Positions 1-8,090 of a stretch of 64,000 nucleotides of DNA are shown here, in pieces. A program made the position numbers and the translations under genes. The notes beneath the pieces are model-generated. The model was not told the DNA's origin. It ran no database searches and saw only the letters and a program-made list of their open reading frames with translations. Every line of letters starts with the position of its first letter. Position 1 is the stretch's first letter. Source of the DNA: a virus; IMG/VR virus record IMGVR_UViG_3300032285_001268, positions 32,001 through 96,000 of that record, one strand, 5' to 3'.

Positions 1-101
1 TTGACCTGCTTGGGCAAGTATAAAGTTAAATGCTTGGGCAAAGCAGACGATTGACATTTTGAGCAAAGTATAGTATAATTGTTTTTTAAGGAGCGAAACT
101 T

Positions 102-458
102 ATGCAAGCAACACAGTTTAAAGTTAGCAAAAAGCTAACACTAGTAGGCGTTACACAAGAAGACGACACTACTTGTACAGAGTACAAGTGCAAAGTAAAA
201 GTGCAACTAGCAGGCGACAGTATTTGGGACTGTAATTTAAAAACAGTTACAATTAAAGAGATACACATTGCAGAGACAGACTGGGGCGATGGCGACACTA
301 ACATACACATTGCAGTTGTACACACAGGCGGTGACGACAGCTGGCGCATATACACAGACAGCGGATTTGAGGCTGCTGTTAGCGACTTGCTAGGGACAGA
401 CGTTAGTTTTACAGAGCAGGGCATGCAAGACGACGGCTACGCGAGTATGGAGTTGTAA
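102..458 (+). CDS. Hypothetical early protein (118 aa, acidic)
   Basis: ORF with its own promoter and GGAGCGAA RBS. Confidence 0.8.
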   Translation: MQATQFKVSKKLTLVGVTQEDDTTCTEYKCKVKVQLAGDSIWDCNLKTVTIKEIHIAETDWGDGDTNIHIAVVHTGGDDSWRIYTDSGFEAAVSDLLGTDVSFTEQGMQDDGYASMEL

Positions 459-526
459 TACATAGCGCACTTGACTTTTTGGGTTAAGTGCGCTATAATT
501 AACACTTACACACAGCAGGAGCGAAT

Positions 527-853
527 ATGTTTAATGCAAAAGATTTAGGCAAGCAGTTTATTAAGTTAGTGCAAGCTAAAGACACAGACTTAGTAGAAGA
601 TATTGTTGACTACGACGGCGAGGATACTTACTTGCTAGACTGTTATGTAGACGACGGCGAAGCTACAGACTATGCTAGCATAGACGAGTTAATTGCTAAA
701 GGCATTGACGGAATTGAAACTGTAGATACTGTAACAGTAATGGGTAGCGCAAGCGGCGACACACGCTGTTACAGCAATACTGTTACAGCAATAGTACTAG
801 ACGATGGTACTAAGTGGATGGATGCGGCATACTACGATTTAATTTTTGCTTAA
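527..853 (+). CDS. Hypothetical early protein (108 aa, acidic)
   Basis: ORF with promoter 471-499 and RBS 518-525. Confidence 0.8.
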   Translation: MFNAKDLGKQFIKLVQAKDTDLVEDIVDYDGEDTYLLDCYVDDGEATDYASIDELIAKGIDGIETVDTVTVMGSASGDTRCYSNTVTAIVLDDGTKWMDAAYYDLIFA

Positions 854-862
854 GGAGACTGT

Positions 863-1051
863 ATGAGCAACATGAGCAAAGCAATAGCATTGCATAAGGC
901 AGTGCAGATGTTAGAGGAAGTAGACGCACTAGTGCAAAAAACACTAGGGGCTAGTGACGACTGTTACGATGTGCATTGTGCGCTGGAGGACTTGCAGGAT
1001 ACACTTGCAGGTTTTGCAGAGCAGTTAGAGGAAATGCAAATAACAGAGTAA
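863..1051 (+). CDS. Hypothetical early protein (62 aa)
   Basis: ORF with AAGGAG RBS. Confidence 0.75.
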   Translation: MSNMSKAIALHKAVQMLEEVDALVQKTLGASDDCYDVHCALEDLQDTLAGFAEQLEEMQITE

Positions 1052-1132
1052 AGTGTAGGGCTTTTGGGCAAGCTGGTTGACAGTTTGCCCAAATCGCAGT
1101 ATACTATAGGCTAAGTTAACAAGGAGCGAACA

Positions 1133-1435
1133 ATGTTAAACATCAGCAAAATCGTAAAGGTCTACAACGGCAAAGTAGGTTGCATGTGCGGGTGTGGCGG
1201 CAAGTACAGCTACACAGCTGACGGGGCTACAAACTATGGCCCAGGCTATGACGTCTCCGACATGATTAACGAGCGTAGTGTACGCATTATTACAAAAAAG
1301 ATCCTCAGCAATCCTCTTGTCAAGTTTGAAGACAATTATGCTTATGTAGAGGACCGTGCCCGTAACAAGATGCAAATGGTTGTGTTCAAAGAGCCACAAG
1401 AGGTCTACAGCCCATTTGACACTTGTAACAGCTGA
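1133..1435 (+). CDS. Hypothetical early protein with CMCGCGG motif
   Basis: ORF with promoter 1077-1105 and RBS 1123; sequence YNGKVGCMCGCGGKY. Confidence 0.8.
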   Translation: MLNISKIVKVYNGKVGCMCGCGGKYSYTADGATNYGPGYDVSDMINERSVRIITKKILSNPLVKFEDNYAYVEDRARNKMQMVVFKEPQEVYSPFDTCNS

Positions 1436-1473
1436 CAGTATAATTAAAACTTAAACACAGCAAGGAGCGAACC

Positions 1474-1719
1474 ATGCAGGTTAAAGAGCTAATTGAAGAA
1501 CTCAAGTACATGGACCCAGATGCCGAAGTACACTTCGCCTATAACTATGGCGATCACTGGCGCACTGAAGTGGCCCCAAAGGTCAGTCGGGTGCAGTCGG
1601 GTGCAGTGGAGTTTAGTGACTACCACCGCATGGACAAGGTAGCTGAAGAGGACGAGTGCTGGGACGAAGATACTGGCGATTGGAAAGAAGACGTCCGCAG
1701 GGTTGTGATTATTGATTAA
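1474..1719 (+). CDS. Hypothetical early protein (81 aa)
   Basis: ORF with promoter 1416-1444 and RBS 1464. Confidence 0.8.
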   Translation: MQVKELIEELKYMDPDAEVHFAYNYGDHWRTEVAPKVSRVQSGAVEFSDYHRMDKVAEEDECWDEDTGDWKEDVRRVVIID

Positions 1720-1774
1720 CCCGTAGAACTGAAGGGGATTTGACAAGAGTCTCCTTTGGTGCTATAATTGAGTT

Positions 1775-1964
1775 AAGTTAGAAATTAGGGGTTACCTACA
1801 CCGTTAGGCCCTTGGAGAGGTGGAAGCGTTCCGACGGGGACCTAGTATCCAGGGCAAGAAGGCAGACCTTCGGGCGAAGCTGGCGGGTAGAGTAGGCTGT
1901 AATGACGAAGGCAACTGACGCCCTGGAGACGGTCCTAGGCAGTTAGACCGGAGTTCCCCTAGTT
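1775..1964 (+). ncRNA. Candidate structured non-coding RNA (~190 nt), family unknown
   Basis: Own consensus promoter (1740-1768), no RBS-led ORF, GC-rich. Closing stem 1783-1791/1956-1964, internal stems, and two hairpin loops (AACTGAC, GGCAGT) that are complementary to each other. Confidence 0.65.
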
Positions 1965-2023
1965 GACAACACTATCATTTGGTTGTATAATACATTTTTC
2001 AACAGTACTTAAAGGAGCGAACG

Positions 2024-2515
2024 ATGGGTACACGAAGCATGATTGCTATTCAAAATCCACATAGCAAACAAATCCGCGCAGTCTACTGCCACTGGGATGG
2101 CTACTTGGAGCACAACGGCGCTATCTTGCAGAAGCACTATGCCGCAAGCCCTAAAGTCAACAACCTTATTGCCTTAGGCGACTTGTCTAGCCTGCGCCCT
2201 GAGATTGGTGTGCAACACGCATTCAGCTCGCTTGATGTACCCAAGCAAGAGCAAGAGGCTTACGATAAAGAGCACGGCAACAGTTGCACGTTCTACGGAC
2301 GTGACAGAGGCGAGAAGGACGTGGGCTTTAAGGTGTTTGACACGCTGGCTAAGGCTTGCGATCACTACACTTGGAGCGACTACTACTACTGCTTCAAGTA
2401 CACTAAGGCCAGCGACTACACAGTTGGCGAGTGGCACTACAAGAAGAACGGCGAGCGTTGGAAGAAGCTGGCTCCTGCTATTGCTAAACTTGATCCAAAG
2501 GAGTGTGCAGAATGA
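2024..2515 (+). CDS. Conserved phage hypothetical protein (MGTRS...YCHWDGY type)
   Basis: N-terminal MGTRSMIAI and YCHWDGY motif, common in phage early regions; promoter and RBS present. Confidence 0.8.
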   Translation: MGTRSMIAIQNPHSKQIRAVYCHWDGYLEHNGAILQKHYAASPKVNNLIALGDLSSLRPEIGVQHAFSSLDVPKQEQEAYDKEHGNSCTFYGRDRGEKDVGFKVFDTLAKACDHYTWSDYYYCFKYTKASDYTVGEWHYKKNGERWKKLAPAIAKLDPKECAE

Positions 2516-2727
2516 AAAAGGTAATTGTGCGCACAGAACTATATCAGGAACTTGAGGTTCCTGATAGCTGGGATAGGTATGATGTATACGATTTCCTAGC
2601 CGAGAACGAGAGCTTCCGTGAGGCTTTCCAAGGTGTAAGTAACCAAGATCAAACAGCCCGCATCCTAGACTTGGGTGTGGTTAATGAAACAGTAACAGAG
2701 ATGGGAGAAGAAGCATATGACGACTAA
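2512..2727 (+). CDS. Hypothetical protein (71 aa)
   Basis: ATG at 2512 overlaps the upstream TGA (ATGA coupling). Confidence 0.7.
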   Translation: MKKVIVRTELYQELEVPDSWDRYDVYDFLAENESFREAFQGVSNQDQTARILDLGVVNETVTEMGEEAYDD

Positions 2728-2896
2728 GGCCGGATATTATCGCAAGAAGGCTATGAGTGACAGCAGGTTTGCCACACTCTATGAGGACCCTACCTACGAG
2801 TTGCCCGAGGACAAAGAGTTTGACGGCCCGGGATTTATTGATGTGACAGGCTGGACAGCAGAAGAAGTGCGCCGCCTGGGTCACGCAGACGAATAA
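2717..2896 (+). CDS. Hypothetical protein (59 aa, below track cut-off)
   Basis: Manual translation MTTKAGYYRKKAMSDSRF...GHADE*; overlaps the previous stop. Confidence 0.6.
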   Translation: MTTKAGYYRKKAMSDSRFATLYEDPTYELPEDKEFDGPGFIDVTGWTAEEVRRLGHADE

Positions 2897-2913
2897 CTAG
2901 TTCGCTCCTAGTT
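2895..2913 (+). promoter_or_regulatory. Hairpin displaying anti-RBS sequence TTCGCTCC
   Basis: Stem AACTAG/CTAGTT, loop TTCGCTC; 2900-2909 GTTCGCTCCT is the reverse complement of AGGAGCGAAC. Confidence 0.6.
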
Positions 2914-2930
2914 GCCCTTGAGGCCGGCAC

Positions 2931-2957
2931 GACCCCCTCCGAGATGGGGGTCACTTT
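2931..2957 (+). terminator. Probable intrinsic terminator
   Basis: GACCCCC/GGGGGTC stem followed by ACTTT (short U tract). Confidence 0.55.
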
Positions 2958-3067
2958 ACAGCTAGACTGTGGCTTTTTTGCCACACTACCAGACCAGACC
3001 CCGCTGTAGCGCGGTTGACGCCCAAGCCAAAATCCTTTATAATTACTACATAATGAAGGAGCGGGCA

Positions 3068-3208
3068 ATGAAGATCACTATCAAAATACCAAACAAAACT
3101 AGGGCACACCTAGTTCTATTTTGCAAGGACACACCCTTCAAGCAGAAGCGTGTAGAGAGCAAGATTAAATATAAACGTCAACCTAAGCACAAGGGGAAAG
3201 AGCTATGA
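3068..3208 (+). CDS. Small basic hypothetical protein
   Basis: ATG 3068 after promoter 3015-3043 and GGAGCGGG RBS; Lys/Arg-rich. Confidence 0.7.
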   Translation: MKITIKIPNKTRAHLVLFCKDTPFKQKRVESKIKYKRQPKHKGKEL

Positions 3209-3453
3209 AGGGCCTAATCACCAACCAATGGGACAGGGATAACCTTAACTTCCTGCTCAATACCAAAGACAAAGATCTAAAGGATTGGCATGCACAGGCA
3301 GACGCAGACGATCTAGCCTATGCTCAGGAACTCTTGGCCGCCTACAGCCTAGAGCTGAAACTTCAGGCTGAAGAGCTCCGTATTGAGTGCGAAATGGATC
3401 TAAAGGGCGACTTTAGCCAAGCATTAGCCGTGATTGACAAGATCAAGTTTTGA
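3205..3453 (+). CDS. Hypothetical protein (82 aa)
   Basis: ATGA overlap with the previous ORF. Confidence 0.75.
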   Translation: MKGLITNQWDRDNLNFLLNTKDKDLKDWHAQADADDLAYAQELLAAYSLELKLQAEELRIECEMDLKGDFSQALAVIDKIKF

Positions 3454-3490
3454 TACTATAATATACACTTAAACAACAAAGGAGCGAACT

Positions 3491-3637
3491 TTGAAGACAA
3501 TGACACAGAAACTAGAGCGTGATCGCTTAAATCGGTTAAAGCGTGAGCGTAAAGCCAATCGTCAGTTTGTGCTAGGTGCAGTGATGCTGGCAACTATCTT
3601 TGTAACCCCCTTGGCCGTTGCGGCCTTACTTTCTTAA
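3491..3637 (+). CDS. Small membrane protein (48 aa)
   Basis: TTG start after GGAGCGAA at 3481; basic N-terminus, hydrophobic C-terminus FVLGAVMLATIFVTPLAVAALLS. Confidence 0.6.
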   Translation: MKTMTQKLERDRLNRLKRERKANRQFVLGAVMLATIFVTPLAVAALLS

Positions 3638-3652
3638 TCATAGGAGCGAACT

Positions 3653-4240
3653 ATGCCTAATTGGTGCAACAACTATCTCGAATTAACTCACGATGATCCA
3701 GCAATGATCACTCGTGCCCGTAAGGCCTTTGCAGACGGACGACTGCTGGACGAATTTGTGCCAGTGCCAGAGAGCCTACACATCGTAGCAGGTCGAGTAG
3801 GTGACGACAACGATCCCAAGCAGATTGAGCTTGAGGCACAGGAAAAGGCCAACCTTGAGACACATGGCTACGCCACTTGGTATGACTACTGCGTCAACGA
3901 GTGGGGCACCAAGTGGGATGTAGGTGGTGATGACTACAGCCCTGCAGATGAAAAAGACCCTAATCATACTCGTATGAGTTTTGATAGTGCCTGGGCACCC
4001 CCTGTGCCTGCTATGGCCAAGTTCCAGGACTTGGGCTTCCGAGTCAAGTTGATCTACTGGGAGTCGGGCATGTGCTTCGCAGGCCTGTTTGACGAGAACG
4101 GTGATGACTTCTATGAACTTGGCGGTATGACTGCTGATCAAGTGGCTGAAGAGATCAACCCAGAGATCGACGAGTGCATGTGCATCAGCGAAAGTATGCG
4201 TGAATGGGAAGAAGAAAACGCTGAAGAGGAAGAAGAATAA
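3653..4240 (+). CDS. DUF1281/YubB-like (ferredoxin-like fold) protein
   Basis: MPNWCNN N-terminus, WYDYCVNEWGTKWDV and FDSAWAPP motifs. Confidence 0.7.
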   Translation: MPNWCNNYLELTHDDPAMITRARKAFADGRLLDEFVPVPESLHIVAGRVGDDNDPKQIELEAQEKANLETHGYATWYDYCVNEWGTKWDVGGDDYSPADEKDPNHTRMSFDSAWAPPVPAMAKFQDLGFRVKLIYWESGMCFAGLFDENGDDFYELGGMTADQVAEEINPEIDECMCISESMREWEEENAEEEEE

Positions 4241-4301
4241 CGGTTGACTGCCTTACCAAAAGGCAGTACAATTAGAATTAGTAAAACAACAAGGTACAGT
4301 A

Positions 4302-4448
4302 ATGAAAACCAACAAAGAAAAGAACTTAGAACATGATGCAAGGATGCAGGCCAAGGTTAGACCAAAGCCTGTAGAGTATAATTGGGAACCATTGGATGCA
4401 GTTGTAAAGCAATGGCGCCAAAGGAGTTATCAGAATGAGCAGGCTTGA
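4302..4448 (+). CDS. Hypothetical protein (48 aa)
   Basis: Manual translation MKTNKEKNLEHDARMQ...; downstream of promoter 4244-4272. Confidence 0.55.
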   Translation: MKTNKEKNLEHDARMQAKVRPKPVEYNWEPLDAVVKQWRQRSYQNEQA

Positions 4449-4716
4449 ATTCTATGCTCGTCCGTTAGTTGCCTTTGATGCACACCTAAAAGAACATCGT
4501 CAGATCTACTATCAGTTTGTCAAAACGATGAGTTGGGGTGCTAGTCCATATAGGTTTATCTGCCCAGAAGATCACGGTGGCGATTTGGTTACCATGATCC
4601 AAAGACAGATCAACGACTACTACATCCACAAAGAATTTGGCGATCGACCACCGAAACCTGAGCCTTTGGTTCGCCAAAAAAGAAAGAAAACGGTTGACAA
4701 GGGCTCAAAAAAGTAA
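4435..4716 (+). CDS. Hypothetical protein (93 aa)
   Basis: ORF with AAGGAG RBS. Confidence 0.75.
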   Translation: MSRLEFYARPLVAFDAHLKEHRQIYYQFVKTMSWGASPYRFICPEDHGGDLVTMIQRQINDYYIHKEFGDRPPKPEPLVRQKRKKTVDKGSKK

Positions 4717-4778
4717 TATAATTTGAACATGCTAAGAAATTGGCATTAATTTTAACACACACAGAAAGAGGTAACAAA

Positions 4779-5144
4779 ATGGCTACAGATAAAACATTTA
4801 ATGTATTTGGTGTTTCTAAACTCAATGGCGAGTACAAAGTTCGTTTCGCGAATGACGTGATGCGTATCAAGGTATTGGCCAAACATGGTCATGAAGATAT
4901 CACTCTTGTTGACTTGGAGAAGTCAGTGAGCAAGTATGAAGGTATCAAGGCTATTGCCACTATGCCAGAGTTTGCCAATGCGGCTGCTCAGAGTGCGATC
5001 GCTGAATACTTGGAAGAAAAAGCACCTAAGGCTAAGGTCTCTAAGCCTGTGGCAAAAGCCGCGAAGACTCCGGTAGCGAAGACTACCAAAGCGCCTGCGA
5101 AAGCAGTTCAGAAAGTTACTGAGAACGAAGACGCTCCTTTCTAA
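4779..5144 (+). CDS. Protein with Lys/Ala/Pro-rich (histone H1-like) tail
   Basis: Likely start ATG 4779 after AGAGG; C-terminal KAPKAKVSKPVAKAAKTPVAKTTKAPAK. Confidence 0.75.
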   Translation: MATDKTFNVFGVSKLNGEYKVRFANDVMRIKVLAKHGHEDITLVDLEKSVSKYEGIKAIATMPEFANAAAQSAIAEYLEEKAPKAKVSKPVAKAAKTPVAKTTKAPAKAVQKVTENEDAPF

Positions 5145-5147
5145 TCT

Positions 5148-5330
5148 ATGTTCATTCAGTACGAAGTCTGGGGCACACTCAACGGGCATGAAGAGCTCCT
5201 TGAGTGTGTAGCAACCCTAAAAGAAGCAGAAGAGTTGGCAGAAGAAGAAAGGTTCTTTGCTGATGAGATTTGGATCCTAGAGGACACGGACGGCGACCTG
5301 AAAGAAGTTAAGCGTTACCAGGGCCTATAG
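5148..5330 (+). CDS. Hypothetical acidic protein (60 aa)
   Basis: ORF whose last codons and TAG overlap the tRNA 5' end. Confidence 0.65.
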   Translation: MFIQYEVWGTLNGHEELLECVATLKEAEELAEEERFFADEIWILEDTDGDLKEVKRYQGL

Positions 5331-5397
5331 CTCAGTTGGTTAGAGCAGAGGACTCATAATCCTTTGGTCCCTGGTTCGAGTCCAGGTGGGCCCACCA
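5321..5397 (+). tRNA. tRNA-Ile2 (anticodon CAU, lysidine type) with encoded CCA
   Basis: Cloverleaf GGGCCTA...TGGGCCC-ACCA, anticodon loop CTCATAA, TTCGA T-loop; C4-G69 and C5-G68 (TilS determinants) favour Ile2 over Met. Confidence 0.9.
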
Positions 5398-5400
5398 CTC

Positions 5401-5430
5401 AAAGGTGTTGTAGAAATACAACACCTTTTC
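5401..5430 (+). terminator. Intrinsic terminator after tRNA
   Basis: AAAGGTGTTGTA-GAAA-TACAACACCTTT followed by TC. Confidence 0.8.
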
Positions 5431-5484
5431 TCTTGACATTTTGGCTAGGCCGTGCTATACTATAGGCTAAGTTAACAAGGAGCA

Positions 5485-5679
5485 GTGATGGGTTACAGAG
5501 TTCTTAACACCGTAGACACGATGCGTGACAATTATGGAGCACGTAAAGGCCTAGAAGGTCCTTACAATTTCAACGGCAGAGTGCTTTACTATGATCCTAA
5601 GGAAGGTAAGTATTACGATCCCAGCACAGACTTCTACGTGAGTCATGACGAATATTTTCGGTTGACAGGCCTCATCTAA
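5485..5679 (+). CDS. Hypothetical early protein (64 aa)
   Basis: Promoter 5433-5461; YYDPKEGKYYDP motif. Confidence 0.75.
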   Translation: MMGYRVLNTVDTMRDNYGARKGLEGPYNFNGRVLYYDPKEGKYYDPSTDFYVSHDEYFRLTGLI

Positions 5680-5718
5680 ACCTGTATAATTATACACATA
5701 CACAGCAAGGAGCGAACC

Positions 5719-5913
5719 ATGCAAGTACACTTTATCGACACAGGAACACAGCAAGACTATGGCTTCAAAGAAGTAGAAGTCCACAGCTTCAAAATGGATC
5801 ATGCTGATGCACCCTACGCCATCGTTAGCAACCCATTCTTTCCAGGAGACAGCCTACGGGCCGAGTATAACTTTTACAACGGTAGCCTGCAATGGACGGT
5901 TGACGTCAGTTGA
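5719..5913 (+). CDS. Hypothetical early protein (64 aa)
   Basis: Promoter 5662-5690, RBS 5709. Confidence 0.78.
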   Translation: MQVHFIDTGTQQDYGFKEVEVHSFKMDHADAPYAIVSNPFFPGDSLRAEYNFYNGSLQWTVDVS

Positions 5914-5952
5914 TTTTGGCAGTATAATTAACATATTAACAAGGAGCGAACC

Positions 5953-6153
5953 ATGTACGATATAGTCCAAAACCCAATTCCATTCAATGGATTCTTTTAC
6001 ACACCAGAATCATTTGCCCAACTGCAAGAGCGCATCGAACAGTTGCCAGCAAAGGAACGAGCACTTGTCTACACATTCGTAACACAGGCTATGAATCTGT
6101 GCTATCGAGAAGTAGAAGACAAGATCTTAAGCCGTGAAATCTTTGCACAATAA
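5953..6153 (+). CDS. Hypothetical early protein (66 aa)
   Basis: Promoter 5900-5928, RBS 5943. Confidence 0.78.
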   Translation: MYDIVQNPIPFNGFFYTPESFAQLQERIEQLPAKERALVYTFVTQAMNLCYREVEDKILSREIFAQ

Positions 6154-6162
6154 GGAGCAGTT

Positions 6163-6315
6163 ATGACTACAGCATTTGAAGCAGTTATCTACGCACTCTA
6201 CTACACATGGCCCATGTGGGCTTTCCTGGCCTTGCTGAGTCTAGCCCTGTTCGTAGAAGAAGGCATCAAAGCCTACAGCCTGCGCAAGATGGTTGACAAC
6301 CCCACGCTTTGGTAA
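6163..6315 (+). CDS. Small membrane protein (50 aa)
   Basis: Manual translation MTTAFEAVIYALYYTWPMWAFLALLSLALFVEEG...; AAGGAGCAG RBS. Confidence 0.65.
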   Translation: MTTAFEAVIYALYYTWPMWAFLALLSLALFVEEGIKAYSLRKMVDNPTLW

Positions 6316-6351
6316 TATAATTAAGACTTAAACAGCAACAAGGAGCGAACC

Positions 6352-6600
6352 ATGAAGCTAAACGAAACCCGCACCGTCCCATATGGCACCATCCAGTATG
6401 TAGAGGACGAGGACTTTGGCAAGTGCTATCTAGTGCGCCACAACTTCATCAAACGCGAGATCTTCGCTGACACAGTCAAAGAAGCCAAGCAAGAGCTGGA
6501 AGAACTGCAGAAGGAAATGTCAGAGCTGAACTCTGCTATCTCTAAGCTTCAACGCTATGGCTACAAGGTCTACAAAGAAGTTGACAGCCTGTACGCTTGA
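6352..6600 (+). CDS. Hypothetical early protein (82 aa, coiled-coil C-terminus)
   Basis: Promoter 6293-6321, RBS 6342. Confidence 0.78.
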   Translation: MKLNETRTVPYGTIQYVEDEDFGKCYLVRHNFIKREIFADTVKEAKQELEELQKEMSELNSAISKLQRYGYKVYKEVDSLYA

Positions 6601-6641
6601 GCATATAATTAACACTTACTTAAACAACATTGGAGCGAACA

Positions 6642-6965
6642 ATGATTACAGCAGAACAAATCCAAGCAGGCAAGACTCTAGCAGAAGCGGCTGGTCGTGC
6701 AGAGTACGCCAAATGGGGCGGTGACCGTGGTGCTTGTGGCTTTGCTTGGGTAGAGGTCTACGTGGACCGTACTAACAGCAAACAGGCCAAAGAGCTGATC
6801 AAGGCAGGCTTCCGCAAGGACTACAAACCAAAATGCTTGAGCATGTGGGATCCAGCAGGCTTGCCCGTGCAGAACATCGACATCAAAGAAGCAGGCGCTT
6901 ATGCCTATGCCAACTACCTTACAGCACTGGGCTTGCGGGCCTATGCGGGTAGCAGACTAGACTAA
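6642..6965 (+). CDS. Conserved phage hypothetical protein (GACGFAWV motif)
   Basis: Likely start ATG 6642 after GGAGCGAA at 6632; promoter 6581-6609. Confidence 0.8.
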   Translation: MITAEQIQAGKTLAEAAGRAEYAKWGGDRGACGFAWVEVYVDRTNSKQAKELIKAGFRKDYKPKCLSMWDPAGLPVQNIDIKEAGAYAYANYLTALGLRAYAGSRLD

Positions 6966-7038
6966 CCAAAACGTTAGGGCACATGCCCTAACTGTAGTAT
7001 AATTAATTTATTAACAGCGTAACAAAGGAGCGTAACAA

Positions 7039-7920
7039 ATGGTAGGTAAAGTCGTAACTAGTAAGATGCTAATGGCACTACAGCAAGATACCAAAAGCCT
7101 GGCCCAAGAGCCAGTTAAGAAAGACATCAGCACAGAGACTGATGAGCAGATCCTCAACCGTCTGCGTGATCGCTTTGAGATCTTAGATGACATGACCCGT
7201 GCAGTCAAGAAGGGCGATGTACGTGCTATGATCGTCACAGGCCCTCCAGGTGTGGGCAAGAGCTTTGGCGTTGAGAAAGTACTCAGCAAGCACGATGTGT
7301 TCGCTAACGTAGCAGACGACAAGAAGCTGAAGAAGTACGAAGTGGTCAAGGGTGCGATGAGCGCCATTGGCCTGTACTCTAAACTCTACGAATACTCAGA
7401 TAAGAAGTCAATCCTAGTATTCGACGACTGTGATAGCGTATTGCTTGATGACCTTAGCTTGAACATCTTGAAAGCCGCTCTGGATACCAGCAAGCGCCGT
7501 ATGATCCATTGGAACACAGACTCTAGGCTCTTGCGTTCAGAGGGTGTGCCCAACTCATTCGAGTTCAAGGGTGGTGCTATCTTTATTACCAACATCAAGT
7601 TCGATCACGTCAAGAGCAAGAAGCTACAGGATCACTTGGAAGCACTAGAGTCACGTTGCCACTACCTAGACTTGACTATCGATACAGAGCGTGAGAAGGT
7701 CCTGCGCATCAAGCAGGTAGTTACCGAGCACGGTATGTTAGATGACTATGAGCTGTCAGATGAAGCCAAGCTGGATGTGGTTGCGTTCGTAGATGCCAAC
7801 AAGCATCGCATGCGTGAGCTGAGCTTGCGTACAGTACTTAAGGTAGCAGACCTTAGAGCTAGCTTCCCGGACAAGTGGACTAGCGTAGCAGAGGTTACTT
7901 GTATGCGTGGCAGCCGCTAG
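7039..7920 (+). CDS. AAA+/P-loop ATPase
   Basis: Walker A GPPGVGKS, Walker B ILVFDD, sensor-like FITN, ALESR arginine finger. Confidence 0.85.
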   Translation: MVGKVVTSKMLMALQQDTKSLAQEPVKKDISTETDEQILNRLRDRFEILDDMTRAVKKGDVRAMIVTGPPGVGKSFGVEKVLSKHDVFANVADDKKLKKYEVVKGAMSAIGLYSKLYEYSDKKSILVFDDCDSVLLDDLSLNILKAALDTSKRRMIHWNTDSRLLRSEGVPNSFEFKGGAIFITNIKFDHVKSKKLQDHLEALESRCHYLDLTIDTEREKVLRIKQVVTEHGMLDDYELSDEAKLDVVAFVDANKHRMRELSLRTVLKVADLRASFPDKWTSVAEVTCMRGSR

Positions 7921-7992
7921 GGCTCAGACCCTACATGCCCGTGTAGAGTATACAGAGCAAGCCGGCCCAGACTGGCAGACTCTGTGCAGTGA

Positions 7993-8090
7993 GAACAACT
8001 GACGTGATTCGCTCCCACTAGGTTGTTCGGTAGTGTGGTCCCTGACACCGTAATTCCGATTCGCTCCCGGTTGTGTCAGGGATTTTTTTT
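7993..8090 (+). ncRNA. Candidate 3'-UTR-derived small RNA with two anti-RBS loops; the second hairpin doubles as an intrinsic terminator
   Basis: Hairpin 7993-8028 has loop ATTCGCTCC; hairpin 8039-8082 (10-bp stem) has a loop ending TTCGCTCC, followed by T8 (8083-8090). Confidence 0.65.

Follow-up and report, generated by a model that had tools for sequence, protein, structure and literature searches.

The stretch analysed here (the window) comprises 64,000 nucleotides (nt) of viral DNA, bases 32001-96000 of the 185-kilobase (kb) IMG/VR record IMGVR_UViG_3300032285_001268, which is estimated to be ~50% complete. Near its start, at 1784-1963, lies a gene for a structured non-coding RNA of ~180 nt that belongs to an uncatalogued family, an assignment that we regard as real and well supported. 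The gene, like every part of the RNA and both flanking promoters described below, is on the + strand. It is preceded by a sigma-70-type promoter (1740-1768) in which TTGACA and TATAAT, separated by 17 nt, match the consensus at 12 of 12 positions and a TG stands before the -10 element (extended -10), as perfect a promoter as an earlier note on this DNA, made from the letters without database searches, had described. The leader AAGTTAGA (1776-1783) follows, and then the RNA core, which a covariance model of the family delimits to 1784-1963 (106.4 bits, E ~1e-25, model positions 1-191) and finds exactly once in the 185-kb record. This cassette is free of open reading frames (ORFs), as the note had said: the best ones on the + strand, of 27 and 32 amino acids, start with TTG and GTG and lack a ribosome-binding site. 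ARAGORN finds neither a transfer RNA (tRNA) nor a transfer-messenger RNA (tmRNA) in it. The promoter of the downstream neighbour gene (2024-2515) occupies 1963-1991, adjoining the last bases of P1, the helix that closes the RNA, and no terminator separates the RNA from that gene.

Related loci were first gathered through a neighbouring 163-residue protein and then searched with the RNA itself, which gave 14 significant same-strand matches at variable distances on either side of the protein; an nhmmer profile and then a covariance model came later. The core 19-mer GGTTACCTASAYYRYTAGG is present in 116 IMG/VR contigs, the profile returned 129 matches (70 of them distinct full-length sequences), and the covariance model, R1, returned 79 copies in 78 sources. 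Each genome record holds one copy, with the exception of L177, where two diverged copies stand in tandem (L177:93-514; 168 and 147 bits), the sole multi-copy locus. Most members score 120-190 bits and the window copy, at 106 bits, falls below them. Outside the core the RNA has a median identity of ~57% to the window copy, while the core is invariant and the neighbouring proteins are 45-85% identical.

The family appears to be new. In Rfam 15, against which three diverse members were compared (the window copy, L128 and L188), no match overlapped 1784-1963 at the gathering score, and at E<=10 only noise emerged: bxd_5 (11.2 bits, - strand, window 1752-1810) for the window copy, NEAT1_2 (13.3 bits) for L128 and none for L188. 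The families thus without a match include riboswitches, self-cleaving ribozymes, raiA and HEARO. The earlier note's view that the RNA lacks the hallmarks of tRNA, tmRNA, RNase P, SRP and 6S is borne out by ARAGORN and Rfam, and the Rfam match that it had named as removing novelty was not found at the gathering score. No copy of the RNA turned up when a genome from each of 185,579 prokaryote species was scanned for the 19-mer, whose four matches there were due to chance; blastn of two members against 50,697 phage records returned nothing, and the closest cultured jumbo phages (Atu_ph07, Phosso and CBB) gave no hit with the family model. Full-text literature searching found no description of the RNA family. 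The tail sheath of the window's record shares 46% identity with its counterpart in Agrobacterium phage Atu_ph07 and ~36% with those of Rak2-like phages, figures from which we take the source virus to be an uncultured jumbo myovirus. Judging by these sequence comparisons, the family is limited to uncultured giant (jumbo) freshwater phages and matches no catalogued RNA family.

The conserved fold was obtained with RNAalifold from 44 representatives that are <88% identical (alignment A2), from which R1 was also built. P1 (AATTAGGGG/CCCCTAGTT, 1783-1791/1956-1964; 9 pairs, one of them G-U) closes the whole molecule and is followed by the junction strand UUA and then by P2 stacked on P3; helices 1-2 covary, AU to GC. 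P1 closes a three-way junction with two branches, one being the P2-P3 stack that bears P4 and P5 and the other a 3' domain, and the P2-P3 stack leads through a second three-way junction (strands AGG, CAUGAA and GGAGAAGC) to P4 and P5. The 5' strands of P2 (CCUAC) and P3 (CCGUU, plus AG in the window lineage) occupy 1795-1807, inside the near-invariant 19-mer GGUUACCUACACCGUUAGG; their partners are at 1892-1896 and 1880-1886. P2 is thus CCTAC/GTAGG at 1795-1799/1892-1896, and the family-wide part of P3 is CCGTT/GGCGG at 1801-1805/1882-1886. Both the closing stem and CCTAC/GTAGG had been drawn in the earlier note and hold, with compensatory changes across the family; its longer CCGTTAG/CTGGCGG survives as CCGTT/GGCGG, which is kept family-wide with compensatory changes, whereas the extra AG/CT pairs occur only in the window lineage.

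The P4 arm (1808-1855), which is supported by covariation, consists of an outer helix, GCCCTTGGA/TCCAGGGC (1808-1816/1848-1855), an internal loop and an apical hairpin, P4a (GUUCC-GACG-GGGAC, 1828-1841; strands 1828-1832/1837-1841). The outer helix, likewise anticipated in the note, shows double changes in 7 of 8 outer pairs and, with P1, P2 and P3, is retained across the family with compensatory changes. P4a has the support of both covariation and the minimum-energy fold, and it displaces the hairpin GGAA-GCG-TTCC proposed earlier. The P4 hairpin loop is GACG or GCCG in the family. The segment at 1856-1881 holds the junction AAGAA (CAUGAA in most relatives) and a short P5 hairpin, whose UUCG tetraloop had been recognised from the single sequence; its apex, CC-UUCG-GG (1867-1874), is homologous to the GNRA-capped hairpin of relatives. 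P5 is capped by GNRA or UUCG and sometimes carries long inserts in the family, and its exact pairing in the window is ambiguous. The conserved junction strand CUGUAAU (1897-1903; family consensus CAGUAAUGA) consists of nearly invariant columns and leads into the 3' domain (1904-1955, variant A), which has outer pairs at 1904-1906/1953-1955, a nested helix ACTG/CAGT at 1914-1917/1940-1943 and an apical hairpin at 1925-1927/1933-1935 with the conserved loop A-GACGG-U. At least three architectures of this domain exist in the family, and a hairpin with loop A-GACGK-U is present in all. The note had taken AACTGAC and GGCAGT for kissing hairpin loops; because AACTG/CAGTT is an ordinary helix nested around the GACGG-loop hairpin, the RNA bears no kissing-loop or pseudoknot signature.

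Covariation among homologues, which the note had called for, is clear. In A2 (n=44), standard pairs fill 90% of cells, a share that falls to 36-47% once the 3' partners are shifted by 1-3 columns, and 36 of 48 pairs have changes on both sides; the observed values were reached by 0 of 500 shuffles. G-U pairs that are invariant in the family (44/44 at one P3 pair, for example) fix the transcribed strand as +. In a mutual-information scan corrected for average product (model-based alignment, 78 sequences), the top pairs are all nested pairs of the fold, and the scan revealed neither non-nested Watson-Crick covariation or a pseudoknot nor any intermolecular contact. Two candidate contacts examined separately also failed: for one between the P4a loop and the 3' hairpin loop, a test for a third pair gave 32 fitting and 26 non-fitting combinations by hand count, which is no support, and for a switch pairing the GACGG loops with the 5' strand of P3, the loops stay unchanged when P3 covaries (members with CCACU/GGUGG). 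The conserved family, its compensatory changes, the strand fixed by G-U pairs and promoters in 63/69 distinct relatives strongly support the note's central proposal of a functional structured RNA with its own promoter.

Taken alone, the window copy would be a poor advertisement for a structured RNA: its fold energy is not better than that of shuffled sequences (z = -1.33), a point that also weighs against the functional interpretation developed below. The case for a real structure comes from covariation among homologues, and the single window sequence proves nothing. That energy, the loss of the outer stem (see below) and the score of 106 bits as against 120-190 in most members are what might suggest a spacer that folds by chance or a family member in decay. 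Against this, the window copy keeps every invariant family position and has all core helices intact, its perfect promoter is kept, and a relative, L030, shares a short P1, the 5' leader and a fresh 3' junction, showing that the form persists. We therefore consider a non-functional stretch barely credible.

The near-invariant junction strands (UUA, CAGUAAUGA, AGG, CAUGAA and GGAGAAGC), set among covarying stems of free sequence, would suit a ribozyme, for instance a self-cleaving or processing RNA that matures the transcript it heads, and the glmS and VS ribozymes are similar in size. The sequences of P2 and P3, however, are conserved, as ribozyme stems with a purely structural role usually are not; there is no signature of a known self-cleaving class and no Rfam match, and the known host ribonucleases (RNase) III and P suffice for processing in relatives. 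Catalysis is thus improbable in our judgement. The conserved multi-helix junction could instead form the pocket of a small-molecule aptamer, acting either as a riboswitch or as an abundant sponge for a signalling nucleotide of host immunity; the 5'-proximal position of the RNA in its transcript and its early placement behind a strong promoter also fit such an aptamer, the latter recalling the anti-defence sponge suggested in the earlier note. Riboswitches have a short, switchable P1 coupled to an expression platform (a terminator or sequestration of the ribosome-binding site), whereas no expression platform is found here, P1 reaches at least 25 pairs in many members and so is not switchable, and a tRNA or another promoter follows the RNA. 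It also resembles no known riboswitch class in Rfam, and no ligand is indicated, so that we give an aptamer little probability as well.

Several other roles were tried and set aside. An ATG in GUAAUGAC opens short frames that might have encoded a small peptide or tmRNA-like tag, but their length and sequence vary between members, following the covariation of the hairpin. Likenesses noticed by eye, to the 16S 3' end (GGUAACC), the sarcin-ricin loop, the L11-binding region, T-loops, box C/D and the Asp codon GAC in loops, neither fit the conserved structure nor hold across variants.

In the window, the RNA gene is one unit of a dense array of promoters. Perfect TTGACA-17-TATAAT promoters on the + strand number 9 in window 1-8000 and 15 in the whole record, all of them at 27-38.6 kb. 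A small ORF of unknown function stands behind each array promoter, almost all small early ORFs have their own promoter, and almost no terminators lie between the promoter units of this early array. Within it, 1740-1964 is the sole ORF-free cassette apart from a tRNA-Met gene (anticodon CAU, 5321-5397), which is the only tRNA in the 185-kb record and lies 3.4 kb downstream of the RNA; the arrays of relatives hold 20-30 tRNAs. Position within the dense consensus-promoter array suggests that the window RNA is expressed early. The neighbouring proteins match no Pfam family and only PHROGs of unknown function.

Promoters accompany the RNA in relatives too, with a sigma-70-type promoter no more than 260 nt upstream in 63/69 distinct members, but no neighbouring protein is conserved (the best cluster occurs at 21/45 loci, at variable positions). 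Many divergent members are part of a tRNA array and share its strand; the next gene, typically 17-25 nt on, is usually tRNA-Asp and in other cases tRNA-Glu, -Ser or -Leu. In these, a terminator-like hairpin comes first in the ~250 nt upstream; two sigma-70 promoters follow, spaced ~100 nt apart and each with an AGTTAGRAA leader behind it, and then a boxA-like motif, GTTCTTTAAAAAG, after which the RNA lies within a duplex formed by its own flanks. The boxA-like motif is found in 25 members, all of the tRNA-operon type and most with tandem promoters. The terminal duplex has a family median of 27 pairs, many members having at least 25, and its energy is -30 to -43 kcal/mol among the long-duplex members listed as against -18.9 kcal/mol in the window. 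A second promoter directly follows the RNA in 20/71 members, including the window copy.

This arrangement resembles a bacterial ribosomal RNA (rRNA) operon, which has tandem P1-P2 promoters, a boxB-boxA leader, RNase III stems around 16S and 23S, and spacer or distal tRNAs. The RNA of relatives occupies the '16S position', with promoters ~100 nt apart, a hairpin, GTTCTTTAAAAAG (compare the rrn boxA, TGCTCTTTAACAA), a duplex of 20-30 pairs and tRNAs. The enclosed RNA differs in being ~180 nt long, with no detectable rRNA similarity, and the motif is identified as boxA by resemblance only; the window copy, moreover, is without boxA, tandem promoters and long duplex.

The loci of relatives contain further elements. 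In L136, L128, L118, L153, L165, L101 and L147, the leader ~60-240 nt upstream of the RNA also bears a small GAAA-type hairpin, CTAGTTAGGAAATTAACTAG. A conserved element of ~95-100 nt, AAGGCGATCCTCAAATG…AAAAAGGGTYGTARCCAARGGAYACGRAGAGAGTTTGGAGACTCTGCC, lies between promoter and RNA at some stand-alone loci (L048:2580-2735, L004:60-175, L084, L133 and L010) and is a candidate for a second structured RNA, as yet unnamed, or for a leader. In L136, L128, L118 and L153, a conserved non-tRNA stretch, GAGAGCCACATCGCCTGGACACTTCC…CACTAGGTCCTGCAA, lies ~10-130 nt past the tRNA-Asp that comes after the RNA and fills the 130-nt gap to tRNA-Glu, making it a candidate for a further small RNA of the operon. 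ARAGORN calls a 'tRNA-Pyl', a suppressor-type tRNA with a CUA anticodon, in the arrays of L168 and L184, ~1.1 kb downstream of the RNA, which may hint at amber read-through or recoding. The -35 element (TTGACA) of the next promoter lies inside the 3' helix of the RNA, UUGACAAUGG, in L006, L157, L170 and L084, with the -10 element just after P1. Finally, in L002:870-900, L007:490-520, L014, L009 and L011 the -10 element of the RNA promoter lies at the centre of an 11-base inverted repeat, GTTCATGTGCT-ATAATA-AGCACATGAAC, which, from its sequence, looks like an operator; the repeat is absent from the promoter of the window RNA.

The window copy is one of a stand-alone class: it has just one promoter and neither a boxA nor a tRNA next to it; no boxA-like motif occurs anywhere in its 185-kb record. 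In relatives an outer terminal stem is formed by CAGTTAGAAAAG pairing with CTTTTCTAACTG. The window retains only the 5' half of this stem, the leader at 1776-1783, whose 3' partner, TCTAAC, is absent downstream, where the promoter at 1963-1991 has taken its place. Where the family median is 27 pairs, the window copy has only 9 solid ones, short of the 20 that would count as a long terminal duplex; at least L030 has the same lineage variant, and its short P1 indicates that this form persists. Identity of the RNA to the window copy does not track that of the neighbouring protein (L038 has 74% RNA and 47% protein identity, L006 53% and 75%), which fits shuffling of cassettes among early regions.

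These contexts bear on whether the RNA might act in cis as a leader, the nascent RNA affecting the transcript that carries it or the polymerase that makes it, for instance through processive antitermination in the manner of the HK022 put RNA and the Bacillus EAR, or serving as a folding insulator or 5' stabiliser for downstream RNA. It is almost always the first element behind a promoter (63/69), in tRNA operons it comes right after the boxA-like motif at the head of kilobases of untranslated RNA, and no terminator precedes the next gene in the window, L030 or L154. Yet the strong second promoter directly behind the RNA in 20/71 members makes the downstream genes independent of read-through, and the very long terminal duplex of most members resembles a processing stem rather than a tether. 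In addition, the tandem duplication in L177 suggests that dosage matters, the boxA-like motif would already explain antitermination in the operon type, and the RNA has no similarity to the put or EAR models in Rfam. We consider a cis-acting leader unlikely on balance.

Large orphan RNAs of phages offer another comparison. GOLLD and ROOL (RF02032 and RF03087) are covarying phage and prophage RNAs found near tRNA islands, in some cases in lake metagenomes, with no known protein partner, and they form homo-oligomers (PMC12286853). A GOLLD RNA (Rfam RF02032, 200.8 bits) with an embedded tRNA lies at L165:10468-10931, in the same tRNA array as a member of the present family, so that these lake phages carry both RNAs. 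A shared ecological and genomic niche, the similar lack of a conserved partner protein nearby and a self-complementary ACGU core in the 3' hairpin loop of many members would be compatible with an RNA-only quaternary assembly, a small counterpart of the GOLLD and ROOL nanocages. GOLLD and ROOL, however, are three to four times larger (>500 nt as against 180-230 nt), are pseudoknotted and build cages of 8 and 14 subunits, whereas the lake-phage RNA shows no homology or covariance-model match to them. About half of the members have GACGG instead of the palindromic GACGU, and no loop-loop covariation is seen. Such an assembly therefore seems quite unlikely.

Other small stable RNAs share single features with the family. 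T4 rnaC and rnaD (species 1 and 2 RNA) are small stable phage RNAs of unknown function that are encoded in a tRNA cluster, transcribed together with it and matured by host RNases, and many relatives of the window RNA are placed alike. There is no homology, as the family profile (nhmmer) finds nothing in T4 69.5-74.5 kb, and rnaC folds like a tRNA with a T arm, GGGUUCGAAUCCC, whereas no tRNA-like T arm with a GUUCRANYC-type loop occurs in the family alignment, the loops being GACG/GCCG, GNRA/UUCG and GACGK. The family further differs in its long terminal duplex and rRNA-operon-like leader, and the window copy in lying outside any tRNA cluster. Y RNA and YrlA, which accompany Ro60 or Rsr and occur in some phages, likewise have a long end-to-end helix closing a multi-branched head and are stable non-coding RNAs of similar size, but the lake-phage RNA matches no Rfam Y RNA family. 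TROVE (Ro60/Rsr, PF05731) and RtcB (PF01139) are absent from the 185-kb record, which, being ~50% complete, leaves their absence from the whole phage unproven; genes for ribosomal protein S21 and RNase III are absent from the record as well. The Rak2-like jumbo phage PA5oct produces two ORF-free RNAs, ncRNA001 (236 nt) and ncRNA002 (451 nt), that each make up several percent of phage reads (PMC7318152). Like the lake-phage RNA they are orphans in a jumbo phage, but there is no homology (the best model score, 9.6 bits, is noise), and conserved structure has been shown for the lake-phage RNA and not for them. The 6S RNA is a rod-like duplex with a central bubble like that of an open promoter, unlike the present multi-branched fold with two branch points, and no Rfam 6S match was obtained. 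A retron RNA needs an adjacent reverse transcriptase, and PF00078 is absent from the window's record.

Taking these lines of evidence together, the reading we favour is that the family constitutes a stable and abundant RNA that acts in trans by binding a conserved component of the host; as a composite statement we give it about an even chance, its mechanism being the weaker part. Host RNA polymerase would transcribe the RNA strongly in the early phase of infection. In many relatives, the RNA would be released from the head of an rRNA-operon-like tRNA transcript, through an RNase III cut in the terminal duplex of at least 25 pairs combined with RNase P processing of the tRNA a few bases downstream. 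By analogy with rrn operons, the long duplex would be an RNase III processing stem, and the boxA-like motif would shield the long untranslated transcript from Rho. With the duplex reduced to 9 pairs and no terminator following, the 3' end of the window copy would also arise by processing, probably by trimming of a read-through early transcript back to P1. The mature RNA would then act in trans as a scaffold or decoy, its invariant junction binding not a phage-specific partner but a conserved host component, most plausibly one with a role in translation or tRNA metabolism.

Four considerations lead to this proposal. A strong promoter or rrn-like unit, together with the tandem duplication in L177, makes an abundant product likely. 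Long processing stems, a promoter right behind the RNA and the lack of a conserved neighbour protein favour an excised, trans-acting RNA over a leader. That the junction core stays invariant amid diverging RNA and proteins speaks for a target, ligand or catalytic core that is itself conserved, rather than for a rapidly evolving defence protein specific to the host. The frequent co-expression with tRNAs loosely indicates translation or tRNA metabolism. Several observations weigh on the other side. The window copy has a closing stem of only 9 pairs and no terminator behind it to account for its 3' end, and it could simply be the 5' leader of the early messenger RNA. The available half-genome holds a single tRNA gene, so the link to tRNA metabolism fails locally. 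A near-invariant core, moreover, would be just as typical of a ribozyme or a pocket for a ligand.

Structured RNAs that covary strongly yet remain orphans are seldom found, and several times they have opened the way to new biology, as with riboswitches, ribozymes and RNA cages. For the window itself, the result gives a gene to an otherwise 'empty' promoter cassette and points to cassette shuffling among early genes. The RNA is widespread in the jumbo phages of lakes, uncultured viruses that rank among the most poorly understood groups. Its core changes more slowly over evolution than the surrounding phage proteins, and in many genomes the RNA would be expressed as cells express ribosomal RNA. 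This spread, slow core and rRNA-like expression argue for an abundant RNA with a conserved target. It is short (~180 nt) with a clean secondary structure, which makes it simple to produce and to assay for partners, catalytic activity, ligands and oligomer formation. Other, unnamed RNAs appear to be present in the same tRNA operons, and the lake-phage RNA may be one piece of a larger phage RNA toolkit. More speculatively, and with clear reservations on our part, giant freshwater phages might use it as a dedicated stable RNA effector, made from a strong early promoter or an rRNA-operon-like unit, whose invariant three-way junction plugs into a universal host machine (the ribosome, RNA polymerase, a tRNA-processing or -modifying enzyme or a tRNA-targeting immune nuclease) or that self-assembles like GOLLD and ROOL, which would make it a new class of viral RNA that reprograms the cell without a phage protein partner.

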